DNA of 64,000 bases. Origin: Dehalococcoidia bacterium. Lineage in GTDB: Bacteria; Chloroflexota; Dehalococcoidia; Lucifugimonadales; UBA3495. The notes beneath the pieces are model-generated. The model worked only from the letters and a program-made list of their open reading frames with translations, ran no database searches and had not been told where the DNA came from. Shown piece by piece: positions 6,357 to 58,651 of the stretch; within the stretch, counting starts at the first letter, position 1, and each line of letters starts with the position of its first letter. The position numbers were made by a program, and so were the translations under genes. The stretch covers positions 2,452,711 through 2,516,710 of the forward strand of contig OZ253540.1 of NCBI GenBank assembly GCA_965262485.1, given 5' to 3'.

Positions 6357-7952
6357 TCAGGAGATGGCGGACGATCCTTCACCGGAGAGGTAGTCGGCAG
6401 TCCGCAGCGCCAGCGCCTGAATGGTCGTGGTCGGATTTATGCAGGCTCCCGTGGTGAAAATGCTCCCGTCGATGATGAACAGGTTGGGCACATCGTGGGC
6501 CCGACCCCACCGGTCGACCACCGAGGTATCGGGGTTGGCTCCCATCCGCGCAGTTCCCAGCAGATGCCAGCCAGCGTTGCGCCGCAACTTTGACGCGATG
6601 ACGCGCTTGGCGCCGGCGGCCTCCAGCGCCTCGGTAGCGCGGGCGATGCCGTGGTCAAGAATGGCCCACGTATTATCGCTCACCGTGTAGTCGATCTTGG
6701 GAGCGGGGATGCCGTGGCTGTCGGTCAATTGAGGGTCCAGCGTAACCCGATTGTGTTGCTCGGGCAGGTCTTCGGCCATAACCACGATGCCCATCTGGCG
6801 GTGGAAGCGTTCCGCGAAATCGCGATGGTGCGCGTCGCCCCACGCCACGGTCTCGCCAACCAGTCCGCCCAGGGCGATTTGCAGGGGAGCGCCGCCGACG
6901 TTGGAAACCTGCAAATCGTACCCCCGCACGAACCCGCGCCGCACGTCGGTTTCGTAGAATTCCTGGCTCAGCATCGACGAACCCCGGGGGCCCTCGTCGG
7001 ATCCCATATCCTCGTCAAACAGCCCCAGAACATATCCACACGGATGGTGCATCAGGTTGCGGCCCACCTGTCCGCTACTGTTGGCCAGACCATCGGGGAA
7101 CAGCGCGCTGCGCGAGTTGAGCAGCAACCGCGACGTGCCGATGCCGTTGCACGCCAGCGCCACCACGTTGGCGTATTGCGCCTGCAGGTCACCGTTGCGG
7201 TCGTAGTACGAAGCGCCGGTGGCTCGCCCGGATGCGTCCACCAGAATCTCGCGGACACGCGCGTGGGTGATCAGGCGGGCGCCCTGTTTCAGGGCTTGCG
7301 GCCAGAAGATTATGTCGCTTCCCGAAGGGGAACGCAGGTATTCGCCGACGTCGGGTTGCCGACCATCCCACGCAGCGGAGTGCACGGCGTTGTCCGATGA
7401 CCACCAGTGCCACCCCAACTTGTTGAAAGCCTGCCCCAGCAGTTCACCACCCCGTCCGATGGGGAGGGGAGGCGTGGGTCGCACCGGTTTCGGCGGATAC
7501 GCCGGGTCGCCCTGCAAACCGCTCACGCCGTGCATCCGGTCATTCAGATCGTAATAGGGTTCCAGCTCAAAGTAGTCCATCGGCCAGTCATCGGCCACGC
7601 CGTCCAGCGACTGCAGGCGAAAGTCGGAAGGATGGAAGCGGGGGAAGTGAGAACCCCAGTGAATCGTGCTGCCACCCACCGCGTTGTACATATACGGAGC
7701 GATGGGAGTGTCATCCTCGTTGACCGGGTAATCTTCGGGCAGCCCGCGGAAGTTGGGATTTGGATGGAAGTCAGTCTGCCAATGCAACTGAGCCTGGGGG
7801 TCGCTCACCGGGAACGCGTTCTGTGGAACCCAACCGCCCTGCTCCAGGCAAACGACCTTTACCCCCGCCTGCGTAAGGCTCCAGGTGAACGCCGCGCCGG
7901 ACGCGCCGGCCCCGATTACCAAAACGTCTGCTACTGCCTGCTTGCTGCCCAT
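6357..7952 (-). CDS. GMC-family FAD-dependent oxidoreductase
   Basis: N-terminal DVLVIGAGASGA FAD motif, 531 aa, and a C-terminal GMC signature region (GT.RMG......VVD..G..H...NL...D.S.F). Confidence 0.9.
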   Translation of the reverse strand: MGSKQAVADVLVIGAGASGAAFTWSLTQAGVKVVCLEQGGWVPQNAFPVSDPQAQLHWQTDFHPNPNFRGLPEDYPVNEDDTPIAPYMYNAVGGSTIHWGSHFPRFHPSDFRLQSLDGVADDWPMDYFELEPYYDLNDRMHGVSGLQGDPAYPPKPVRPTPPLPIGRGGELLGQAFNKLGWHWWSSDNAVHSAAWDGRQPDVGEYLRSPSGSDIIFWPQALKQGARLITHARVREILVDASGRATGASYYDRNGDLQAQYANVVALACNGIGTSRLLLNSRSALFPDGLANSSGQVGRNLMHHPCGYVLGLFDEDMGSDEGPRGSSMLSQEFYETDVRRGFVRGYDLQVSNVGGAPLQIALGGLVGETVAWGDAHHRDFAERFHRQMGIVVMAEDLPEQHNRVTLDPQLTDSHGIPAPKIDYTVSDNTWAILDHGIARATEALEAAGAKRVIASKLRRNAGWHLLGTARMGANPDTSVVDRWGRAHDVPNLFIIDGSIFTTGACINPTTTIQALALRTADYLSGEGSSAIS

Positions 7953-8021
7953 GTGATTTGCTCCTGATTCTTGTTGATGACTAACTTGGTGAGAATATCA
8001 AACGGCGAAAGCCATTATGTA

Positions 8022-8196
8022 GAGCCTGTTGACAATTAGCAAACCAGCCCGTCGCTCCTGCGAAAGAACGTCACCCCGTACTTGATACGGGGCAGGAGTC
8101 CAGAGAGGGTCAGATGAAAGAATCAGAACCGTGATTAACGACTTCGGCCACTGGATTCCCGCTTTCGCGGGAATGACGGTATTTGTCAACACACCG
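8022..8196. mobile_element. TA-flanked MITE (175 bp) carrying the GTCATTCCCGCGAAAGCGGGAATCC hairpin module
   Basis: Ends are GAGCCTGTTGACAATT... and ...AAATACCGTC/TTGTCAACACACCG (imperfect TIR). TA dinucleotides sit at 8020-8021 and 8197-8198. Related copies lie at 26226 and 49418. Confidence 0.6.
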
Positions 8197-8370
8197 TAGG
8201 TGGGCTTTGACTTCCCGCCGGGCCTTTTCAAAGTCCTCCGACCTCCGCTCATGGTGAGCTTGTCGAACCATCGACGACCGTCCTTCGACAGGCTCAGGAC
8301 GAGCGGGTGGTTGATTTCCACAACTTGGCGGACGGGCAGTTTGATTCTGTAAAAGAATCAAGTCCCCGTG

Positions 8371-9174
8371 CTAGTCCGACTGCCACCGCAACCGTTCTTC
8401 AAGCTGCCGGATGCGCTCGTTGGCGGCATCCCGTTCGACTTGGGCAGCATCTCGATCCGCTTGGACGGCATCCCGGTCGGCTCGGGCGGCGTCCCGCTGA
8501 TCTTCGGCGGCTACCAGGGCCGCCTGCAATTCGGACGGATCCAACAGAAAGTCGTCCGTTTTCAGGTCATAAAAGCGCAGCTTGCCATCGTCCCAACACA
8601 GGAACAGGTCCAGAGCCGCGCTGTATCCGGAAAGCATCCCGTACATTTTCCCGGGGCGGTCGTCGGCCAGCGGCGTGGGTTCGTAGCGGCCATTGACCAG
8701 AAAATCGCCGGCCAGCGGCGCATCATGGTATTCTCCGCCAGTGTAGTCAAACCGCCAGTATTCGCCCACGCTGAAGCCGGCATAACCGTCGCGCTTGACC
8801 GTGTAATCGCGCCGCCCGGTGTGCTGCGAGGCGACTTCCAACACGAACTCCGGGGGTTTGCCCACGTCATCGATTTCATAACCGTTGTTATCTTCGATGG
8901 CGTCGGGGTCAACGCCAAAAGCCACTACCAGGTCGGGCTCCAGCCAGCCGGAGCGTATCTGACTCCTCTCAAAGCACAAGTAGCCTTCGCCGCTCACCAG
9001 CACATCGGCCCGGTGGGAGAAGTGGCGATAGAGCGTGTTTCCGATGGCGGCACGGTGATAGTGGTTGTATTGCTGCATATCCGGCTTTTTGGGCGGGTCG
9101 GGCAACGGCGGTTTGGACGCCCGGCGCCGATTGCCGCCCGGTTCGGATGCAACGTCCCGCTGGGTTGTCATCAT
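8371..9174 (-). CDS. Uma2-family (DUF820) endonuclease with a C-terminal RDAA-rich coiled coil
   Basis: The core ...EPDLVVAFG....Y.....PEFVLEV.S......D...K...Y...GV.EYW is typical of Uma2. The start is set at ATGATG 9174 to avoid overlap with the thiolase gene. Confidence 0.8.
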   Translation of the reverse strand: MMTTQRDVASEPGGNRRRASKPPLPDPPKKPDMQQYNHYHRAAIGNTLYRHFSHRADVLVSGEGYLCFERSQIRSGWLEPDLVVAFGVDPDAIEDNNGYEIDDVGKPPEFVLEVASQHTGRRDYTVKRDGYAGFSVGEYWRFDYTGGEYHDAPLAGDFLVNGRYEPTPLADDRPGKMYGMLSGYSAALDLFLCWDDGKLRFYDLKTDDFLLDPSELQAALVAAEDQRDAARADRDAVQADRDAAQVERDAANERIRQLEERLRWQSD

Positions 9175-9206
9175 CGGCCTCGCAATTTGAGGGTGATCAC
9201 AGGAAA

Positions 9207-10406
9207 CTACTTCCGCTCGAAGACGGCGGCTACGCCCTGGCCGCCGCCGACGCACATGGTTTCCAGACCCCACTGCAAATCCTGCCTCTCCATCTCGTGG
9301 AGCATAGTCGCCAGGATACGCGCGCCGGTGGCGGCGATGGGGTGGCCCAGTGAAATGCCGGAGCCGTTGACGTTGAGATTATCTTCGTGGGGCAGGTTCC
9401 ACTCGCGGAGCACGGCGAGCACCTGGGCGGCGAAGGCTTCGTTGAGTTCAATGATGTCCATATCCCCCAGCGTCATGCCGATCTTGTTCATAACCTTGTT
9501 GACGGAGGCCACGGGGCCGATGCCCATGGTGGCCGGATGGCAGCCGGTTACGGCCCAACCGCGCAGGTAGGCCATGGGGGTCAGGCCCAGCTCCTCGAGT
9601 TTATCCTCGGCCACCACCAGGCACACCGAGGCGGCATCGTTCTGACTGCTGGCGTTGCCGGCGGTAACACAGCCATCCTGCATCACCGGACGCAGGCGTC
9701 CCAGAACGTCCATGGTGGTATCGCCGCGGGGGCCCTCGTCGGTGTCGAAGATTTTGGGGTCGCCACGGCGCTGGGGGATGCTGACGGGGATGATCTCGGC
9801 GTCGAATTTGCCGGAATCGCGGGCGGCGACGGCGCGCTGGTGGCTCCGCAGCGCGAACTCATCCTGTTCCTGCCGTGGGATTTCGTACTGTTTCGCCAGA
9901 TTTTCCGCCGTTTCGACCATGCCGCCGGGTAGGGGTCCGAAACGCTCTTCGGGGGCGATGGTAACCCGGGCGCGGGCCAGGCGGTCGTGGAATGTAACCG
10001 AGCCGAAACGGGCGCCCCAACGCGATTCGTTGTTGTAGAACTCGGCGCCGCTCATGCTCTCCACACCGCCGGCAATTACTACGTCGGCGTTGTCGGTCTG
10101 CACCAGCATGGAGGCGTTGAGAATCGCCTGCAAACCGGAGGAGCAACGGCGGTCCAGCTGGTAGCCGGGCACCTCAATTGGCAGGCCCGCCTTGAGACCG
10201 GCCAACCGGCCGATGGCGGGGTTCTCGCCGGAGGGATAGCCGTGGCCGAGAATGACGTCGTCAACCAGGGCTGGGTCGATGCCGCTCCGTTCCAGAGCAG
10301 CGCTGATGACGGTGGAAGCCAGCTCGGCGGCGGATATGTCGCGCAGGCCCCCGCCGAAGTTACCGACGGCAGTGCGGACTGGGGAAACGATGGCTACTCC
10401 TCGCAT
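9207..10406 (-). CDS. Acetyl-CoA C-acetyltransferase (thiolase)
   Basis: MRGVAIVSPVRTAVGNFGG..., active-site CSSGLQA, and C-terminal NGSGISLGHP/CVGGGQG motifs. The ATG at 10406 is preceded by AAGGAG. Confidence 0.92.
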   Translation of the reverse strand: MRGVAIVSPVRTAVGNFGGGLRDISAAELASTVISAALERSGIDPALVDDVILGHGYPSGENPAIGRLAGLKAGLPIEVPGYQLDRRCSSGLQAILNASMLVQTDNADVVIAGGVESMSGAEFYNNESRWGARFGSVTFHDRLARARVTIAPEERFGPLPGGMVETAENLAKQYEIPRQEQDEFALRSHQRAVAARDSGKFDAEIIPVSIPQRRGDPKIFDTDEGPRGDTTMDVLGRLRPVMQDGCVTAGNASSQNDAASVCLVVAEDKLEELGLTPMAYLRGWAVTGCHPATMGIGPVASVNKVMNKIGMTLGDMDIIELNEAFAAQVLAVLREWNLPHEDNLNVNGSGISLGHPIAATGARILATMLHEMERQDLQWGLETMCVGGGQGVAAVFERK

Positions 10407-10803: not shown

Positions 10804-10878
10804 GGGGGCTTAGCTCAGTGGGAGAGCACCTGCTTTGCAAGCAGGGGGTCAGGGGTTCGAATCCCCTAGCCTCCACCA
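10804..10878 (+). tRNA. tRNA-Ala (anticodon TGC), CCA encoded
   Basis: GGGGGCTTAGCTCAG...CCTGC-TTTGCAA-GCAGG...GGTTCGAATCC...AGCCTCCACCA. Cloverleaf arms pair, and the G3:U70 identity pair is present. Confidence 0.95.
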
Positions 10879-54210: not shown

Positions 54211-54425
54211 CAGGGCTATCGCATATGGACGGTTTTAACCACTGCCATTCCCGCGTTAACCACCGTCATTCCCGCGAAAGCGGGAATCCAGGCGCTTTGG
54301 AAAGCAGACATCGTTCACATTGAGGGTACTCCGGATTCCCGCTTTCGCGGGAATGACGAGTTGGGGTTCGGGAATGACGAGCTGGGGTCAGTGAAATCGC
54401 CTTATATCTCAAATGTCAACACGGC
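54211..54425. repeat. Chimeric MITE debris (ISAs1-type MITE end + hairpin modules + TA-MITE end)
   Basis: Starts 1 nt after the amidase stop with CAGGGCTATCGCATATGGAC. It contains three CATTCCCGC... modules and ends ...AAATGTCAACACGGCCC. Confidence 0.65.
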
Positions 54426-54446: not shown

Positions 54447-55334
54447 ATGTTACGGAAAGCCATCATACCCGCCGCCGGTCTGGGGACGCGGTTTTTGCCG
54501 GTTACCCGGTCGGTGCCCAAGGAACTGCTGCCCATTCTGGACCGCCCGATGTTGCAATACGTGGTCGCGGAGGCTGCGGAGGCTGGGATCACGGAAGTTA
54601 TAGTCATAACGTCGCCCGGGAAAGAGGGTATCGCCGAGTATTTCCGGCCCCGGCCAGACCTGGAGCAACGGTTGGCTGATGACGAGCAGTTGTTGAGTCG
54701 GGTACGCTCCGGCACCGACCTGGCGGACGTGTCATTTGTGATTCAGGAAGAACCGCTGGGTCTGGGTCATGCAGTCCTGACGGCTCGGGATGCGGTGGGG
54801 GATGAACCGTTTGCGGTGATACTGCCCGACGACATCATTGCCAATGCTCCGGGGGCGCTGGCCCAGATGCTGGCGGCAACCGCCGAACAGTCGGGCAACG
54901 GTAAATCCGTGGCCGCCGTGGCCGTGGAACGGTTGCCGTGGGAGGTAGTCCACAACTACGGGGTAGTGGATGCCGAACCGGACGGAGAGCGTCGGCACCG
55001 GGTCAAGGGCCTGGTGGAGAAACCGCCGCCGGGCACCGCCCCATCCAACCTCTCTATAGTGGGTCGGTACATTCTCCCGCCGCAGGTATTTGAGTGCCTG
55101 GAACGCACGCTGCCCGGAGCCAGGGGCGAAATCCAGTTGACGGACGGCCTGGCGCTGTTGATGGAAGACTGCCCCCTGTACGCCTGCGAATTCGATGGCA
55201 TCAGATATGACGGCGGCAACCCCATGGGCCTGCTGCGGGCATCGCTGGAGCACGCGCTGGCCCGCGAGGACACCAAAGCGGCGGCCGCGGAGCTGGTGCG
55301 GCAGCTGGCGGCCGGCCTGGGTACTGGCGAGTAG
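54447..55334 (+). CDS. galU: UTP--glucose-1-phosphate uridylyltransferase
   Basis: KAIIPAAGLGTRFLP.T...PKE(L/M)LP(I/V).D.P..QY.V.EA..AGI. Confidence 0.93.
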   Translation: MLRKAIIPAAGLGTRFLPVTRSVPKELLPILDRPMLQYVVAEAAEAGITEVIVITSPGKEGIAEYFRPRPDLEQRLADDEQLLSRVRSGTDLADVSFVIQEEPLGLGHAVLTARDAVGDEPFAVILPDDIIANAPGALAQMLAATAEQSGNGKSVAAVAVERLPWEVVHNYGVVDAEPDGERRHRVKGLVEKPPPGTAPSNLSIVGRYILPPQVFECLERTLPGARGEIQLTDGLALLMEDCPLYACEFDGIRYDGGNPMGLLRASLEHALAREDTKAAAAELVRQLAAGLGTGE

Positions 55335-55349
55335 CGGGGTTGGGAGGGT

Positions 55350-55436
55350 ACGCCCCTCACCCCCGGCCCCTCTCCCACAAGGGGAGAGGGAGCGTTTTTA
55401 CCTGGATGAAAAGGATGGACCGGATGGACCGGATTT
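55350..55436. repeat. D-type repeat
   Basis: GCCCCTCACCCCCGGCCCCTCTCCCACAAGGGGAGAGGGAGCG...GGATGGACCGGATGGACCGGATTTTTGG. Confidence 0.75.
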
Positions 55437-55466
55437 TTGGCCGTGGTTTGCCATTGGAGGACGAGG

Positions 55467-56858
55467 CTACAATCTATTCCATTGCTCCAAGTACTCGGCG
55501 GCTTTAATTATTCGTTCAGAGTTGTCCTCAAATGCCCCGATGCCGGTATTGCATTTGCCACAAAGCAAGCCACGAATTATCCCGCTCTGATGGTTGTGGT
55601 CAACGTACAAGGAGTCGAGGTACTGTGCTTTTTGTATTCTTTTGTGTTCCTCCGGGCGCAAGCAAATCCAGCAGACTCCGTTTCTTTCTGACAGTAGCCA
55701 TTCGTATTGGTCGATAGTAATGCCGTACTGCTGCCTTAGGTTTTGGTTTTTTTGGCTCCTGAACTTCTTATCACGGCTCTGGGCTTCCCAATGCGGAATA
55801 TCAAATCTTGCGAAAATCTGCTCGTCCGGTAGTGCTGGGATGTCTCGCGGCTCTAGCCCTGGACTATTCAAATACTCCACAGCGGAGAGCATAAGCCCGG
55901 TGTTTTCCCCGAAATACCCCAGTCCGCTGTTGCATCCCGGACATAACAATCGCCTAACTTGGTTGGTATCATGGTCGTGGTCGATGAACAACTTTTTTTC
56001 TTGCCGGCAGATAGCGCATGACCCCTCTTGTTCAAGTTTCATGCGGTCACGTTCTGCCAGTGTTAACCCATACAGACTAATGAGTGATTGGTTTTTGAGA
56101 CGTTCCCTGTACTTCGGGTCGGTGCGGTAGCGCTCACGCAGCTTGTCATTCTGTTCGTCGCGCCACTCAGGATCGTTCGCGCGGCGCTTTTTGCTCCGCT
56201 GATTAGCTCTTTGTCTAGCCGCCGGCGTTCGCTGGTTATCAAGTATCTTCTGCCGGTGTTCCGGGTCGTTGTGATACCGGTGTTTCTGCTTGGCGTTTTC
56301 CGTTTCACGCCATTCAAGATCGTTAGCGCGACGGTCCTTCTCCCGCTGATTAGCTCTTTGTCTAGCCGCCGGCGTTCGCTGGTTATCAAGTATCTTCTGC
56401 CTGTGCTCAGGGTCGCTGTGATACCGGTCCCGCCTTTTGGAAAGTTCTTCCTCACGATATCCAGGCTCGTTGTGATAACGCTCCTTCCGTGCAGATAACG
56501 TCTGCTGGCGGTATTCGGTGTCATTGGCCCACCTTTCCCGTTTCGGGGCTGATAAACCTTCCCGATATTCTGGGTCGTTGCGATAGCGTTCCTGCCGCCG
56601 AGCATTTTGTGCATTACGCCATTCTGCGTCGTTGGCACGTCGCGCTTTCCCTCTTCGGTTTTTCTTTTCCAGAGCTTGGGGAGTCTGTTGTCTGGCCTTT
56701 ATTTTCTTCCTGAATTCAGGGGTCTCGGCGTACTTCTTGTTTTGTTGCGCCCTGGTACACTCTTTGCATGCCGAGTCGAAACGACCATTACGAAAATAGA
56801 AGTGATCCCTGTCCACAGATTTGATTTCGCCGCACTTGGTACAATTCTTGAACTTCAT
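55467..56858 (-). CDS. Zn-ribbon + 18-aa basic repeat array + tandem double endonuclease VII (HNH-like) protein
   Basis: GGAGGA-preceded ATG at 56858. CTKC...CKEC ribbon. About 10 x NDPE(Y/W/H)R-x8-RERY(R/H) repeats. Two full CxxC..DH(D/N)H..CxxCN modules. AT-richer than its flanks. Confidence 0.85.
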   Translation of the reverse strand: MKFKNCTKCGEIKSVDRDHFYFRNGRFDSACKECTRAQQNKKYAETPEFRKKIKARQQTPQALEKKNRRGKARRANDAEWRNAQNARRQERYRNDPEYREGLSAPKRERWANDTEYRQQTLSARKERYHNEPGYREEELSKRRDRYHSDPEHRQKILDNQRTPAARQRANQREKDRRANDLEWRETENAKQKHRYHNDPEHRQKILDNQRTPAARQRANQRSKKRRANDPEWRDEQNDKLRERYRTDPKYRERLKNQSLISLYGLTLAERDRMKLEQEGSCAICRQEKKLFIDHDHDTNQVRRLLCPGCNSGLGYFGENTGLMLSAVEYLNSPGLEPRDIPALPDEQIFARFDIPHWEAQSRDKKFRSQKNQNLRQQYGITIDQYEWLLSERNGVCWICLRPEEHKRIQKAQYLDSLYVDHNHQSGIIRGLLCGKCNTGIGAFEDNSERIIKAAEYLEQWNRL

Positions 56859-56931
56859 GGTTCCTCCAAAAGAACGCGAAATGCCCCCGTCGGCACCAGC
56901 CAACAGGGGCTACATTTCTTGAGGAGGAAGC

Positions 56932-57393
56932 CTATTCGAGACGCGGGGTGGCGCCAGATAATGCGGCCGGCGTGTATTGAACTCGCCGGAGATGGCTGGC
57001 AACCAGTAGAATGCTCCCTACTGTTGATAAGCCGCTGAGAATGCGGGCGGCGCCTTTGACCAATAGTGTGGAAAGACGCAATCGGAAACGCAGCGCCCAC
57101 GCTGATGGCTCTTGAGGAAAAGTAAGTGCTTTTGCCCAAAAGAGGCACCATTGTCCGGAAGCTGCGACAGTGGCAAAGACGGCTGCTAATACTCCTAGCC
57201 AAAATAGCGATTGTGCGGCCGGGGCCGCAACATCGAGAGCAAAGTCCAGCGGCGGCAAGCCACACAGGGCCGATACCAGTGCAACCACGCCACAGGCGGT
57301 CAGAAGGAATCCTCCAAAATACAGCGTGGTCTGGATGGCGAGCTGACGGGCTGCGAACCCTGAAAGCCGGCAGGTGTGAGAGACGGCATTCAT
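56932..57393 (-). CDS. Hypothetical membrane protein (about 4 TM)
   Basis: 153-aa ORF with hydrophobic stretches, upstream of and co-oriented with the endo VII gene. No homology recognised. Confidence 0.4.
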   Translation of the reverse strand: MNAVSHTCRLSGFAARQLAIQTTLYFGGFLLTACGVVALVSALCGLPPLDFALDVAAPAAQSLFWLGVLAAVFATVAASGQWCLFWAKALTFPQEPSAWALRFRLRLSTLLVKGAARILSGLSTVGSILLVASHLRRVQYTPAALSGATPRLE

Positions 57394-57429
57394 AAGGCTA
57401 ACTTAACATAGTCTTGCACAGTCGTCCAC

Positions 57430-58330
57430 ATACTCTATCAGCTTGGAAAATCGCATAGCAATGACGGGGGCGTCCTTCGACGGGCTCAGGATGAGCCTTC
57501 GAAAGGCTGTGGAGAGGCGGTGGAGGGGACGGGTTTTTACCTGGATGAACCGGATGAACGGGATGGACAGGATTTTTGGGTGGGGATGTTGGGGATGGCG
57601 GTTCCTTTTGGTCAGGCGGTGATGATGGTGGTCGGGTGGTGAGTTTGCGTCGTGTTGTGGGTGGTCAGGCGGTGGTTGGTGGTTGGTTGGGTTTCGCCAG
57701 AGGTTTCGGGTCGTTGTCAGCATACGGCCGGTGGGTACGCAAAGGTGTTTAGCCCCTGATTCCGTTCACTGTGACGGGGCCGGTGAGGGCCGGGTCGCAG
57801 CACGCAGCGTAGTGGCGTCCGCTGTGACGGGTCCGACCGGGGCGTTGAAGCAATACACGCCTGCGGTCTGACTTGCGCCGATTTGCGATTTTTGCTGACG
57901 GGATGGCCGTCGACCTGAAACCTCTGGCGGAGGTGTGGCTGGTTGGAATTGATTGACGAGTTTTAACCTGACAGGGTTGATGATAGGGGAGTGATTTACG
58001 AGGGCGCAAGGGGGTGGGTGTCAGTGGGGACGGGAATACGGGTTTTACATCGATGGACAGGATGGACAGGATTTTTGGTGTTACGTGTAACGGGATTGCC
58101 ACGTGGTTCGACAGGCTCACCATGAGCGGCTGGGCTGCTCGCGATGGCATGAGGTTGCGATTTTCACCCTCACCCCCGTATCAAGTACGGGGCAGGCTCC
58201 AACCCTCTCCCATCGAGGGAGAGGGGGCTGCCGTTTTACATCGATGGACAGGATGGACAGGATTTAGAGCGGGGTGGCGGGGGTGGGTTAATTGACATGG
58301 CCGGCGGCGTCGCCGTAGAATTGCGTCCGC
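57430..58330. repeat. About 0.9 kb of non-coding DNA made largely of stacked repeat units (D-type, FDRLTMSG-type, CCCCGTATCAAGTACGGGG hairpin)
   Basis: Units recognisable at 57470-57585, 58030-58075, 58100-58135, 58170-58200 and 58200-58270. The central 57600-58000 is unassigned. Confidence 0.6.
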
Positions 58331-58414
58331 TACACGTTGGGGTTGCAATCGACCGGATGTAGTCTGAATTTGAATATGCTCTTTCCACACGCCCCATGAA
58401 AGGAGGCGCCAATC

Positions 58415-58651
58415 ATGGCTACAAAAGCCTTTTTGCTGGTAGAAACCGCGGTCGGTCGAACCAGAGACGTTGCCAACACGCTGCGTGATCTGGATGGGAT
58501 CGAGTCAGTGGACGTGGTAACCGGCCCTTACGACATCATCGCCGTAATTTCCGGCGACGACATGTCGGTTGTCGGCGGGCTGGTAACGGAAAAAATCCAC
58601 ACGGTTGTCGGAGTGGTACGCACCGTTACCTGCGTGGCAGTGGACGCTTGA
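58415..58651 (+). CDS. Stand-alone Lrp/AsnC ligand-binding (RAM) domain protein
   Basis: 78 aa. AF.L(V/I)....G.......L......V.....TG.YD... is the typical pattern. AAAGGAGG SD. Confidence 0.8.
   Translation: MATKAFLLVETAVGRTRDVANTLRDLDGIESVDVVTGPYDIIAVISGDDMSVVGGLVTEKIHTVVGVVRTVTCVAVDA

Follow-up and report, generated by a model that had tools for sequence, protein, structure and literature searches.

Nucleases of the His-Me finger and endonuclease VII (EndoVII) types are usually described as dimers with one active site per subunit. In endonuclease VII of phage T4, residues C23, C26, C58 and C61 are zinc ligands and D40, H41, H43 and N62 are catalytic. Hpy99I, an enzyme of a restriction-modification system, requires two active sites for the cleavage of duplex DNA. 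In an unrelated enzyme class, the double-motif LAGLIDADG enzymes such as I-SceI arose by duplication or fusion of the homodimeric type represented by I-CreI, resulting in monomeric pseudo-dimers that read asymmetric sites. Here we analyse a gene encoding a 463-amino acid (aa) protein with two EndoVII modules in a single polypeptide, located in a 64,000-nucleotide stretch of a Dehalococcoidia genome (contig OZ253540.1; the whole stretch is hereafter called the window). The assignment of this cytoplasmic protein, as predicted from its sequence, to the Zn-stabilized His-Me finger DNA endonucleases of the EndoVII/Hpy99I clade, with two intact predicted active sites in one chain, is secure. A small open reading frame (ORF) lies directly upstream of the nuclease gene across homologous loci, so the nuclease is the second cistron of a conserved two-gene cassette. 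Our preferred interpretation, to which we assign a probability of about 0.55, is that this is a horizontally acquired cassette whose product is a translation-gated, single-chain pseudo-dimeric EndoVII nuclease with a conflict-related role. Homologous loci and proteins are cited below by their L and P numbers.

Two endonuclease VII modules, a zinc ribbon and a basic repeat array in one chain

The nuclease gene (463 aa plus stop codon) occupies positions 55467..56858 of the minus strand, as do all the cassette features described below. The ORF is uninterrupted and GGAGGAACC precedes its ATG at 56858, in agreement with a preliminary description of this DNA that had proposed a 463-aa frame preceded by a Shine-Dalgarno (SD) sequence, and whose feature coordinates proved correct to within a few bases. 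The product carries, in this order, a Zn ribbon, an array of basic repeats and two EndoVII modules (1 and 2) joined by a conserved linker, and these motifs and modules are real rather than chance patterns. The modules were scanned separately against Pfam family PF02945 (Endonuclease_7; gathering cut-off of 23.6 bits). Module 1 (aa 258-334, 55857..56087, CAIC...DHDH...CPGCN) reached 67.7 bits and module 2 (aa 366-461, 55476..55763, CWIC...DHNH...CGKCN) 74.5 bits, and the whole nuclease matched the family over two stretches with 124.1 bits. The protein was likewise matched twice by several PHROG families that carry an endonuclease VII annotation, and no match for the whole nuclease was found in NCBIfam. 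PF02945 corresponds to group 13 of the His-Me finger nucleases (Jablonska et al. 2017, PMC5714182).

The motif CxxC...DHxH...CxxCN is present in both modules. Residue conservation was determined in a 26-sequence family alignment and again with 30 sequences, with identity down to 33%. In module 1, residues C281, C284, D293, H294, H296, C306, C309 and N310 were invariant in the 26 relatives; in module 2 the same was true of C396, C399, D420, H421, C433, C436 and N437, and nearly so of H423. The preliminary description had claimed two complete EndoVII modules and had asked whether one of them lacks essential residues: neither does, since the full D-H-x-H...N and CxxC sets occur in both, and both can be considered complete EndoVII-type His-Me fingers. 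The invariance of the catalytic and Zn-ligand residues among relatives indicates that both copies are under purifying selection at the active site. The two modules are only 33% identical to each other, which points to an old duplication, and module 2 contains a 12-residue insert. They are joined by a family-specific linker of 30-40 residues (aa 335-365, 55764..55856) with the motif FARF(D/E)IPxWEAQSRDKxFR; conservation reaches 90% or more at I354, P355, W357, S361, D363 and R367. In the family alignment the C-terminus of the nuclease lies 2-20 residues past module 2. Two relatives deviate from this pattern in module 2: P0018 contains unrelated sequence after the DHQH, which suggests a frameshift or pseudogene, and P0024 has DHNP in place of DHxH. 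These two cases point to occasional decay of one module.

AlphaFold2 was run on the family alignment, both for the whole protein and for the core (aa 250-463) alone. The whole nuclease was modelled with a mean predicted local distance difference test score (pLDDT) of 91.3 and a predicted template modelling score (pTM) of 0.52, as a ribbon followed by helices and then by two strand-strand-helix modules with a helical linker between them. The strand-strand-helix of each module, corresponding to the beta-beta-alpha-metal fold, had pLDDT values above 90, and the linker had values of 84-96. The low full-length pTM reflects an uncertain placing of the array relative to the core. The core alone reached a pLDDT of 93.7 and a pTM of 0.87, with five out of five models at 92.5 or above, and on the basis of these values the two modules and the linker are predicted to form one rigid body. 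Such a rigid core fits a single-chain, covalent pseudo-dimer. In sequence comparisons, the best PDB matches of the modules were Hpy99I (E = 1.2e-6) and T4 endonuclease VII (E = 0.008). In Foldseek searches against PDB, Hpy99I was the sole significant match to the catalytic modules (probability 0.99, 87 columns), and no match was obtained there for the two-module body as a whole. Many phage EndoVII models were matched at a probability of 1.00; in BFVD, the matches were exclusively single-module phage EndoVII proteins.

At its N-terminal end the nuclease contains a four-cysteine zinc ribbon (aa 6-34, 56757..56843) of the form CTKC-x21-CKEC, that is, C6-x2-C9-x21-C31-x2-C34. AlphaFold modelled it as four beta strands (aa 3-31), and conservation in the alignment of 26 relatives reaches 90% or more at C6, C9 and C31, in support of the ribbon initially proposed. 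Between the ribbon and the nuclease modules stand ~13 basic single-helix repeats. This array (aa 45-263, 56070..56726) includes ten NDPEYR-type motifs at a spacing of 18 or 31 residues, the latter composed of a 14-residue unit plus a 17-residue 'TPxxR' unit. Its net charge is +26 across 223 aa, and AlphaFold placed in it an unbroken series of 14 helices (aa 32-263, pLDDT 87-95), each 11-17 residues long and starting with an N-D-P-E cap. The count of about ten repeats and the Arg/Lys-rich helical character that had been attributed to the array thus stand. The repeat unit has the consensus N-D-P-E-Y-R-E-R-x-N-A-R-x-R-E-R-(Y/R)-A, with 94% conservation of R6 and the greatest variability at positions 8, 9, 12 and 13. 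An array that is strongly basic and predicted to be all-helical fits nucleic-acid binding.

The array contains a tandem 147-bp (49-aa) duplication (56106..56399), detected by Tandem Repeats Finder as a 147-bp period with about two copies. This duplication had been noticed previously together with an exact repeat of 56 nt; the exact repeat is in fact 59 nt long (56196-56254 = 56343-56401). In P0001, the 96%-identical orthologue from L004, the second 147-bp copy differs from the first at H201Y, N208S and R210K. Since the block is exact in the window and the copies differ in P0001, the 59-nt identity suggests recent gene conversion within the array. No match to the array was found in Pfam, in NCBIfam or in the PDB fold search. 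Arrays of six to ten NDPEYR units were also found fused to HNH (P0040, P0045) and MUG113/GIY-YIG-like (P0046) domains and, in P0044, to a C-terminal domain that matches no assigned type, and in the family members P0023, P0026, P0027 and P0029 extra CxxC ribbons largely replace the array. The earlier remark that phage and actinobacterial EndoVII proteins carry only one to three NPE-type repeats is weakened by the six- to ten-unit arrays on HNH and GIY-YIG-like proteins. Being fused to several nuclease types and replaceable by ribbons, the array behaves as an exchangeable nuclease-associated module. With fusions to at least three nuclease classes, no Pfam match and expansion and contraction driven by recombination, it is a candidate for a new type of DNA-binding module associated with nucleases.

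A search of 5.8 billion protein clusters revealed ~30 full-length relatives of the nuclease, 37-96% identical and 420-620 aa long, none of them named. In an exhaustive HMMER search of 1.84 billion representatives, 98,706 proteins were recovered at E <=1e-3, a set that corresponds to the EndoVII superfamily, and 30 at E <=1e-30. Full-length members came exclusively from Dehalococcoidia and Chloroflexota metagenome-assembled genomes, with 10 species-representative genomes out of 185,579 species genomes, and both the complete architecture and the two-gene cassette are restricted to Dehalococcoidia. A hidden Markov model of the module identified two modules in 164 of the 186 proteins gathered, more than 100 further clusters at 50% identity outside the Dehalococcoidia cassette family carry tandem EndoVII, and Pfam assigned two domains to all ten tandem proteins tested. 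In less biased samples, tandem ORFs accounted for 1 out of 80 EndoVII-bearing ORFs from genome loci and for 3 out of 92 from viral contigs. Tandem proteins that do not belong to the family measure 200-530 aa and frequently include Zn ribbons or related 'NRE/NPE' helical repeats. Both their modules resemble module 1 of the family, their linkers are shorter (median of 26 residues), and the W..QSRD linker motif is absent from them. A single origin of all tandem EndoVII proteins was rejected on these grounds, as the linker motif is specific to the family and both outside modules are of the module 1 type; the pattern suggests either independent origins or a strong specialization of module 2 in the cassette family.

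Among deposited phage genomes, 527 records contained single-module matches and none covered 80% or more of the nuclease. IMG/VR yielded only single-module relatives, plus three unrelated tandem ORFs. A phage origin of the nuclease was rejected because the IMG/VR relatives and the BFVD matches are single-module, and also in view of its housekeeping neighbours and of the best phage record, which covers at most 56% of the protein. The statement in the preliminary description that EndoVII proteins carry one catalytic module holds for deposited phage genomes and fails for metagenomes (the 164 of 186 proteins above). In the literature we found no description of tandem or double EndoVII or HNH proteins, of PF02945 tandems or of the NDPEYR repeat. 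As to whether this exact architecture is common and already characterized, the tandem does recur, and no paper describing it was found. Tandem EndoVII is less unique than initially held; the two-gene Dehalococcoidia cassette with a single-chain double EndoVII nuclease is undescribed.

The upstream membrane-protein gene and the intercistronic hairpin

Alignment of the DNA of the window with three homologue loci revealed ~470 bp of conservation upstream of the nuclease gene. This region contains a small ORF (56932..57393, 153 aa) located on the same strand and directly upstream of the nuclease in 11 of 12 distinct loci; it is present in the window, L001, L003, L004, L005, L006 and L011 to L016, and missing only in L010. 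An interpretation of this conservation as RNA was rejected: 11 of the 12 distinct loci keep an uninterrupted frame, the third codon position is the most variable, and synonymous changes leave the place of the stop codon and the C-terminal peptide motif intact. The product contains hydrophobic segments at aa ~22-46 and 58-85, plus a weaker third one, and is predicted from its hydropathy to be a membrane protein with two transmembrane segments. It carries a GxWC motif, and its extreme C-terminus, AxL(S/A)GAxP(L/R)Lx, is invariant and retained through synonymous codon changes, in a protein that is conserved down to 23-29% identity. No match to it was found in Pfam, NCBIfam or PADLOC, and a profile built from 11 members retrieved seven database matches, all unnamed.

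The small ORF is frequently overlooked in annotations, and the preliminary description mentioned neither it nor the proposed translational gate nor the mobile context of the cassette. It is not called in L001 and L005, and in L003 only a 64-aa ORF on the opposite strand is called at that place. In L001, the annotated gene at 8001-9872 (P0004, 623 aa) is a gene-calling artefact in which the nuclease is extended ~155 codons upstream, in another frame, through the small-ORF region. As gene callers miss the partner gene in most assemblies, the cassette is invisible in current annotation.

Regarding the expression of the cassette, a -10-like box (TAAGTT, 57400..57405) lies 6 nt before the ATG of the small ORF. 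Direct comparison of loci showed a TAnnnT hexamer ending exactly 6 nt before this ATG in eight of nine loci, against a background of 1.2% per position; the corresponding region of L003 reads TACAAT-N6-GTG. A scan with the sigma-70 consensus returned nothing useful for the promoter of the small ORF, and no Shine-Dalgarno sequence precedes its ATG. The fixed 6-nt offset of the -10-like box and the absence of an SD indicate that the small gene is probably a leaderless first cistron, so that the operon mRNA would start at its ATG.

The nuclease ribosome-binding site (RBS) is predicted to be sequestered by an intercistronic stem-loop (56859..56932), whose design recurs in most loci. In the window, the anti-SD sequence UUCCUCC (56923-56929), located 2 nt past the UAG of the small ORF, pairs with the SD sequence GGAGGAA (56861-56867), and the stem-loop has a minimum free energy of -44 kcal/mol (z = -5.8 versus shuffles). 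An SD/anti-SD hairpin was observed in 10 of 12 loci, with the anti-SD starting 2-6 nt after the stop codon of the small ORF. Six loci including the window were tested against shuffles, and values of z from -2.4 to -5.0 were obtained for L001, L003, L006, L014 and L016; the same design occurs in the distant L011, L012, L013 and L015. The inner sequences of the hairpin differ among loci, and RNAalifold identified six pairs with double-sided (compensatory) changes. Classical translational coupling is the simplest reading of this structure. A ribosome terminating at the stop codon of the small ORF would unwind the anti-SD arm, a step deduced from the folding, and would transiently free the RBS, in such a way that the nuclease would be made only when translation of the small ORF melts the hairpin. 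This gating would hold a potentially toxic nuclease at a very low level and tied to its partner. The arrangement of a leaderless membrane-protein ORF, a sequestered RBS and a nuclease offers a testable case of the silencing of a dangerous enzyme in Dehalococcoidia, for which few genetic tools are available.

Insertion site and surrounding DNA

The cassette genes of the window have a GC content at third codon positions (GC3) of 0.55-0.57, as compared with 0.75 for the galU, amidase and acyl-CoA dehydrogenase (ACAD) genes, and the GC content of the cassette was below that of its flanks in the 11 loci measured (11/11). In the window the nuclease gene is flanked by galU on one side and, on the other, by the small membrane-protein ORF and then asnC; beyond the gene pair, the neighbours are housekeeping genes that differ in each genome. 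An empty site was identified in the related metagenome contig L087 (MKWU01000013.1), where positions 7858-7981 correspond to 55334-58415 of the window with the cassette missing. This contig contains galU (79% identity), a 110-nt spacer, asnC (97%) and ACAD (89%), and the asnC promoter ATTGACA-N17-TAGAAT is conserved in L087 and in the window (58291-58325). From the length of the L087 spacer, the window contains ~2.95 kb of extra DNA, made up of the cassette and repetitive extragenic palindrome (REP)-like DNA.

Comparison of the window with its strain-level relative L004 revealed 99 synonymous and 21 non-synonymous codon changes in the flanking genes, and 21 and 28, respectively, in the cassette genes (Fisher p = 7e-7). 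The synonymous change per codon of the cassette was 2.3-fold lower than that of the flanks (p = 1e-4). These data place either the arrival or an exchange of the cassette later than the divergence of the hosts of the window and L004, and indicate that its proteins evolve fast outside the catalytic core. The foreign GC3, the empty site, the differing neighbours and the fast protein evolution lead us to conclude that the cassette was horizontally acquired. The same insertion locus is shared only by the 96%-identical pair formed by the window and L004, and the contexts are different in L001, L003, L005 and L006. Homology between cassettes stops at the stop codon of the nuclease and ~20 nt upstream of the small ORF. 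Transposon-like ends were considered and rejected, as direct and inverted repeats across the two boundaries in 12 loci exceeded those in shuffled sequences only for host REP-like elements (window and L004) and for one 19-nt repeat in L003.

The latter is a direct repeat, CG(C/A)TTTTGACATCCCCCGG, that brackets the cassette of L003, a complete Dehalococcoidia chromosome, at 7427-7445 and 9383-9401. Its copies lie ~30 nt upstream of the small ORF and, at the other end of the cassette, 18 nt past the nuclease stop codon, and it holds a TTGACA -35-like hexamer. L003 is the sole locus with such a repeat, a possible target-site duplication.

The REP-like element on the galU side (55367..55440, no strand assigned) is not an end of the cassette, since copies of it are dispersed in the window and in other Dehalococcoidia loci. 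A second copy on the other side (57522..57579) is 84% identical and in direct orientation. The element consists of a hairpin, CCCTCTCCC-N5-GGGAGAGGG, followed by GGATGGACCGGATGGACCGGATTTTTGG, and gives rise to spurious ORFs such as 'FTWMKRMDRMDRIFG'. Copies at 55367-55440, 57522-57579, 58021-58078 and 58203-58278 crowd the intergenic DNA around the cassette, and others were found near 1.9, 8.2, 20.7, 32.2-32.4, 34.1-34.2 and 61.7 kb of the window as well as in L004 and L014. Between the cassette and asnC, the stretch 57580-57930 comprises a G/T-rich tract with a GC skew of up to +0.36 and then a 19-nt inverted repeat, whose arms (57695-57713 and 57911-57929) are separated by 197 nt. The region from ~57500 to 58280 is mostly without colinear counterpart in L004, save for short REP-like matches. 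On the opposite side of galU, the amidase-galU spacer contains, at 54235-54389, a 26-nt perfect inverted repeat, CGTCATTCCCGCGAAAGCGGGAATCC (54264-54289 and 54333-54358), flanked by tandem 21-nt repeats, apparently another type of intergenic palindromic element. The only RNA family detected by Rfam at gathering threshold in the 64-kb window was a tRNA-Ala(TGC) gene (10804-10878), far from the locus.

Possible roles of the cassette and comparison with known systems

According to the interpretation we prefer, the two modules would act as an intramolecular pseudo-dimer in which one monomer supplies both active sites, and which would cut both DNA strands and could address an asymmetric site. The ribbon and the array would lie along the DNA, giving affinity, specificity or both, and the role would be that of a defence-type or addiction-type nuclease on mobile DNA, not of a housekeeping Holliday-junction resolvase. 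Several observations weigh against this interpretation. No methyltransferase gene was found adjacent to the nuclease in the window and five other loci, the sole methylase being ~7 kb away in L003. The cassette showed neither a PADLOC system match nor a defence-island context, and in PADLOC-DB 2.0 the nuclease matched only the generic REase_II model PDLC03494 (9e-16). Neither terminal inverted repeats nor consistent target-site duplications nor recombinase genes that could account for the mobility of the cassette were detected. The high ratio of non-synonymous to synonymous changes could be due to relaxed constraint and not to conflict. Finally, the regulatory design has exceptions: a 330-nt spacer without hairpin follows the small ORF in L005, and L010 lacks both the hairpin and the small ORF.

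A different role, which we regard as unlikely, is that of a free-standing homing-type endonuclease that cuts cassette-free alleles, into which repair then copies the cassette, with the array setting the site and changes in repeat number retargeting it. The EndoVII family does include one such enzyme, the free-standing homing endonuclease F-CphI of phage S-PM2, and it is characteristic of homing enzymes that DNA-binding arrays are shared, as here, among EndoVII, HNH and GIY-YIG-like nucleases. The presence of the cassette at one site in two diverged strains, with a synonymous divergence lower than that of the flanks, the presence/absence polymorphism created at one locus by the empty site of L087, the 19-nt direct repeat flanking the L003 cassette and the absence of a transposase or integrase would all fit this process. 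On the other hand, the cassette is in a different context in every more distant genome, known homing endonuclease genes have no membrane-protein partner such as the one retained here down to 23-29% identity, most loci lack flanking repeats, and the insertion in the window is not clean, with ~2.95 kb of extra DNA that includes REP-like sequences. Classical homing is less favoured because the partner is conserved and the insertion contexts differ; it keeps some weight because of the lack of a defence-island context or PADLOC match and of the same-site occupancy at low synonymous divergence. The evidence is thus split between a defence or addiction function and homing. A conflict-type nuclease is the most likely role and a housekeeping resolvase the least. 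As a structure-selective resolvase or repair nuclease, the protein would be a cellular counterpart of T4 endonuclease VII acting on Holliday junctions, cruciforms or mismatches, with the tandem replacing the homodimer. The membership of both modules in PF02945, the match to the T4 enzyme (E = 0.008) and the palindromic REP-like elements adjoining the cassette, which might extrude cruciforms, speak for such a function. We consider it very improbable, given the patchy distribution of the family (10 Dehalococcoidia species genomes of 185,579), its foreign codon usage, the absence of the cassette from the otherwise syntenic relative L087, the presence of RuvA and RuvC in the L003 carrier genome and the restriction of the alignment with T4 endonuclease VII to residues 17-74, with the remainder of the T4 enzyme unmatched. 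Expression that, judging from the folding of the hairpin, would be strongly repressed also argues against a housekeeping function.

The two-site pseudo-dimer that we favour also has to be weighed against the possibility that only one module cuts and the other serves as a Zn-stabilized DNA-binding or scaffold domain, in which case the protein would be a nickase or would require dimerization. The asymmetry of the modules (33% identity, 12-residue insert in module 2), the resemblance of both modules of the outside-family tandems to module 1 and the loss of residues in one module of P0024 (DHNP) and P0018 (truncated in module 2) are compatible with this division of labour. In each of the two modules, however, the D-H-x-H...N set shows complete or almost complete invariance among 26-30 sequences with identities down to 33%, and a non-catalytic module is hard to reconcile with such conservation; we therefore give this explanation little credence. 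A bolder extension of the preferred conflict-nuclease interpretation, which we regard as a rather long shot, is that the NDPEYR helices form a modular DNA-reading solenoid, in which the number of units and the variable positions 8, 9, 12 and 13 set the length and sequence of the target, mounted on a two-site core and combined with a membrane partner and a gated hairpin in a new class of conflict system specific to Dehalococcoidia. If this were true, the solenoid and the monomeric EndoVII core would constitute a naturally programmable rare cutter of asymmetric sites, and the cassette would represent a previously unrecognized class of conflict system, of defence or addiction type, specific to Dehalococcoidia.

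Among described enzymes, Hpy99I is the closest to the nuclease. It is the best match in sequence and the only significant one in fold (0.99), and the DHxH...CxxCN(T/S)G(L/I)G motif is common to both. Nevertheless, each chain of the Hpy99I homodimer (PDB 3FC3) carries a single module, only residues 154-199 of Hpy99I align, and the N-terminal part of the nuclease consists of a Zn ribbon and helical repeats instead of the N-terminal half of Hpy99I. T4 endonuclease VII (gp49; PDB 1EN7, 2QNC) belongs to the same Pfam family, PF02945, and its C23, C26, C58, C61, D40, H41, H43 and N62 align with both modules of the nuclease. In contrast to the protein described here, the T4 enzyme is a 157-aa domain-swapped homodimer, aligned only over residues 17-74 (1E7D) with the C-terminal domain beyond them unmatched, and it serves phage packaging and recombination, whereas the nuclease is encoded by a chromosomal cassette gene. 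The homing endonuclease F-CphI, from cyanophage S-PM2, has an EndoVII-type module matched by the nuclease at E = 1e-14 and, going by its record annotation, illustrates that the EndoVII fold can serve selfish, site-specific cutting. Unlike the nuclease, F-CphI is phage-borne, has a single module and lies beside its target gene, without a repeat array or a membrane partner.

In its regulatory anatomy the cassette resembles hok/mok, where the RBS of a potentially toxic gene is buried in the folded mRNA and becomes accessible only when a reading frame upstream is translated, a behaviour that in our case is suggested by folding. The two systems differ in that the upstream ORF of the cassette is itself a conserved protein and does not overlap the nuclease gene, and no antisense RNA was detected. 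With respect to the single-chain architecture, the relation of I-SceI to I-CreI provides a working analogy only, as the fold and chemistry of LAGLIDADG enzymes are unrelated to those of the nuclease and no homology exists between them. A natural and widespread single-chain EndoVII would provide a monomeric scaffold for the cleavage of both strands at asymmetric sites, a counterpart of the I-CreI to I-SceI transition that was important in LAGLIDADG engineering.

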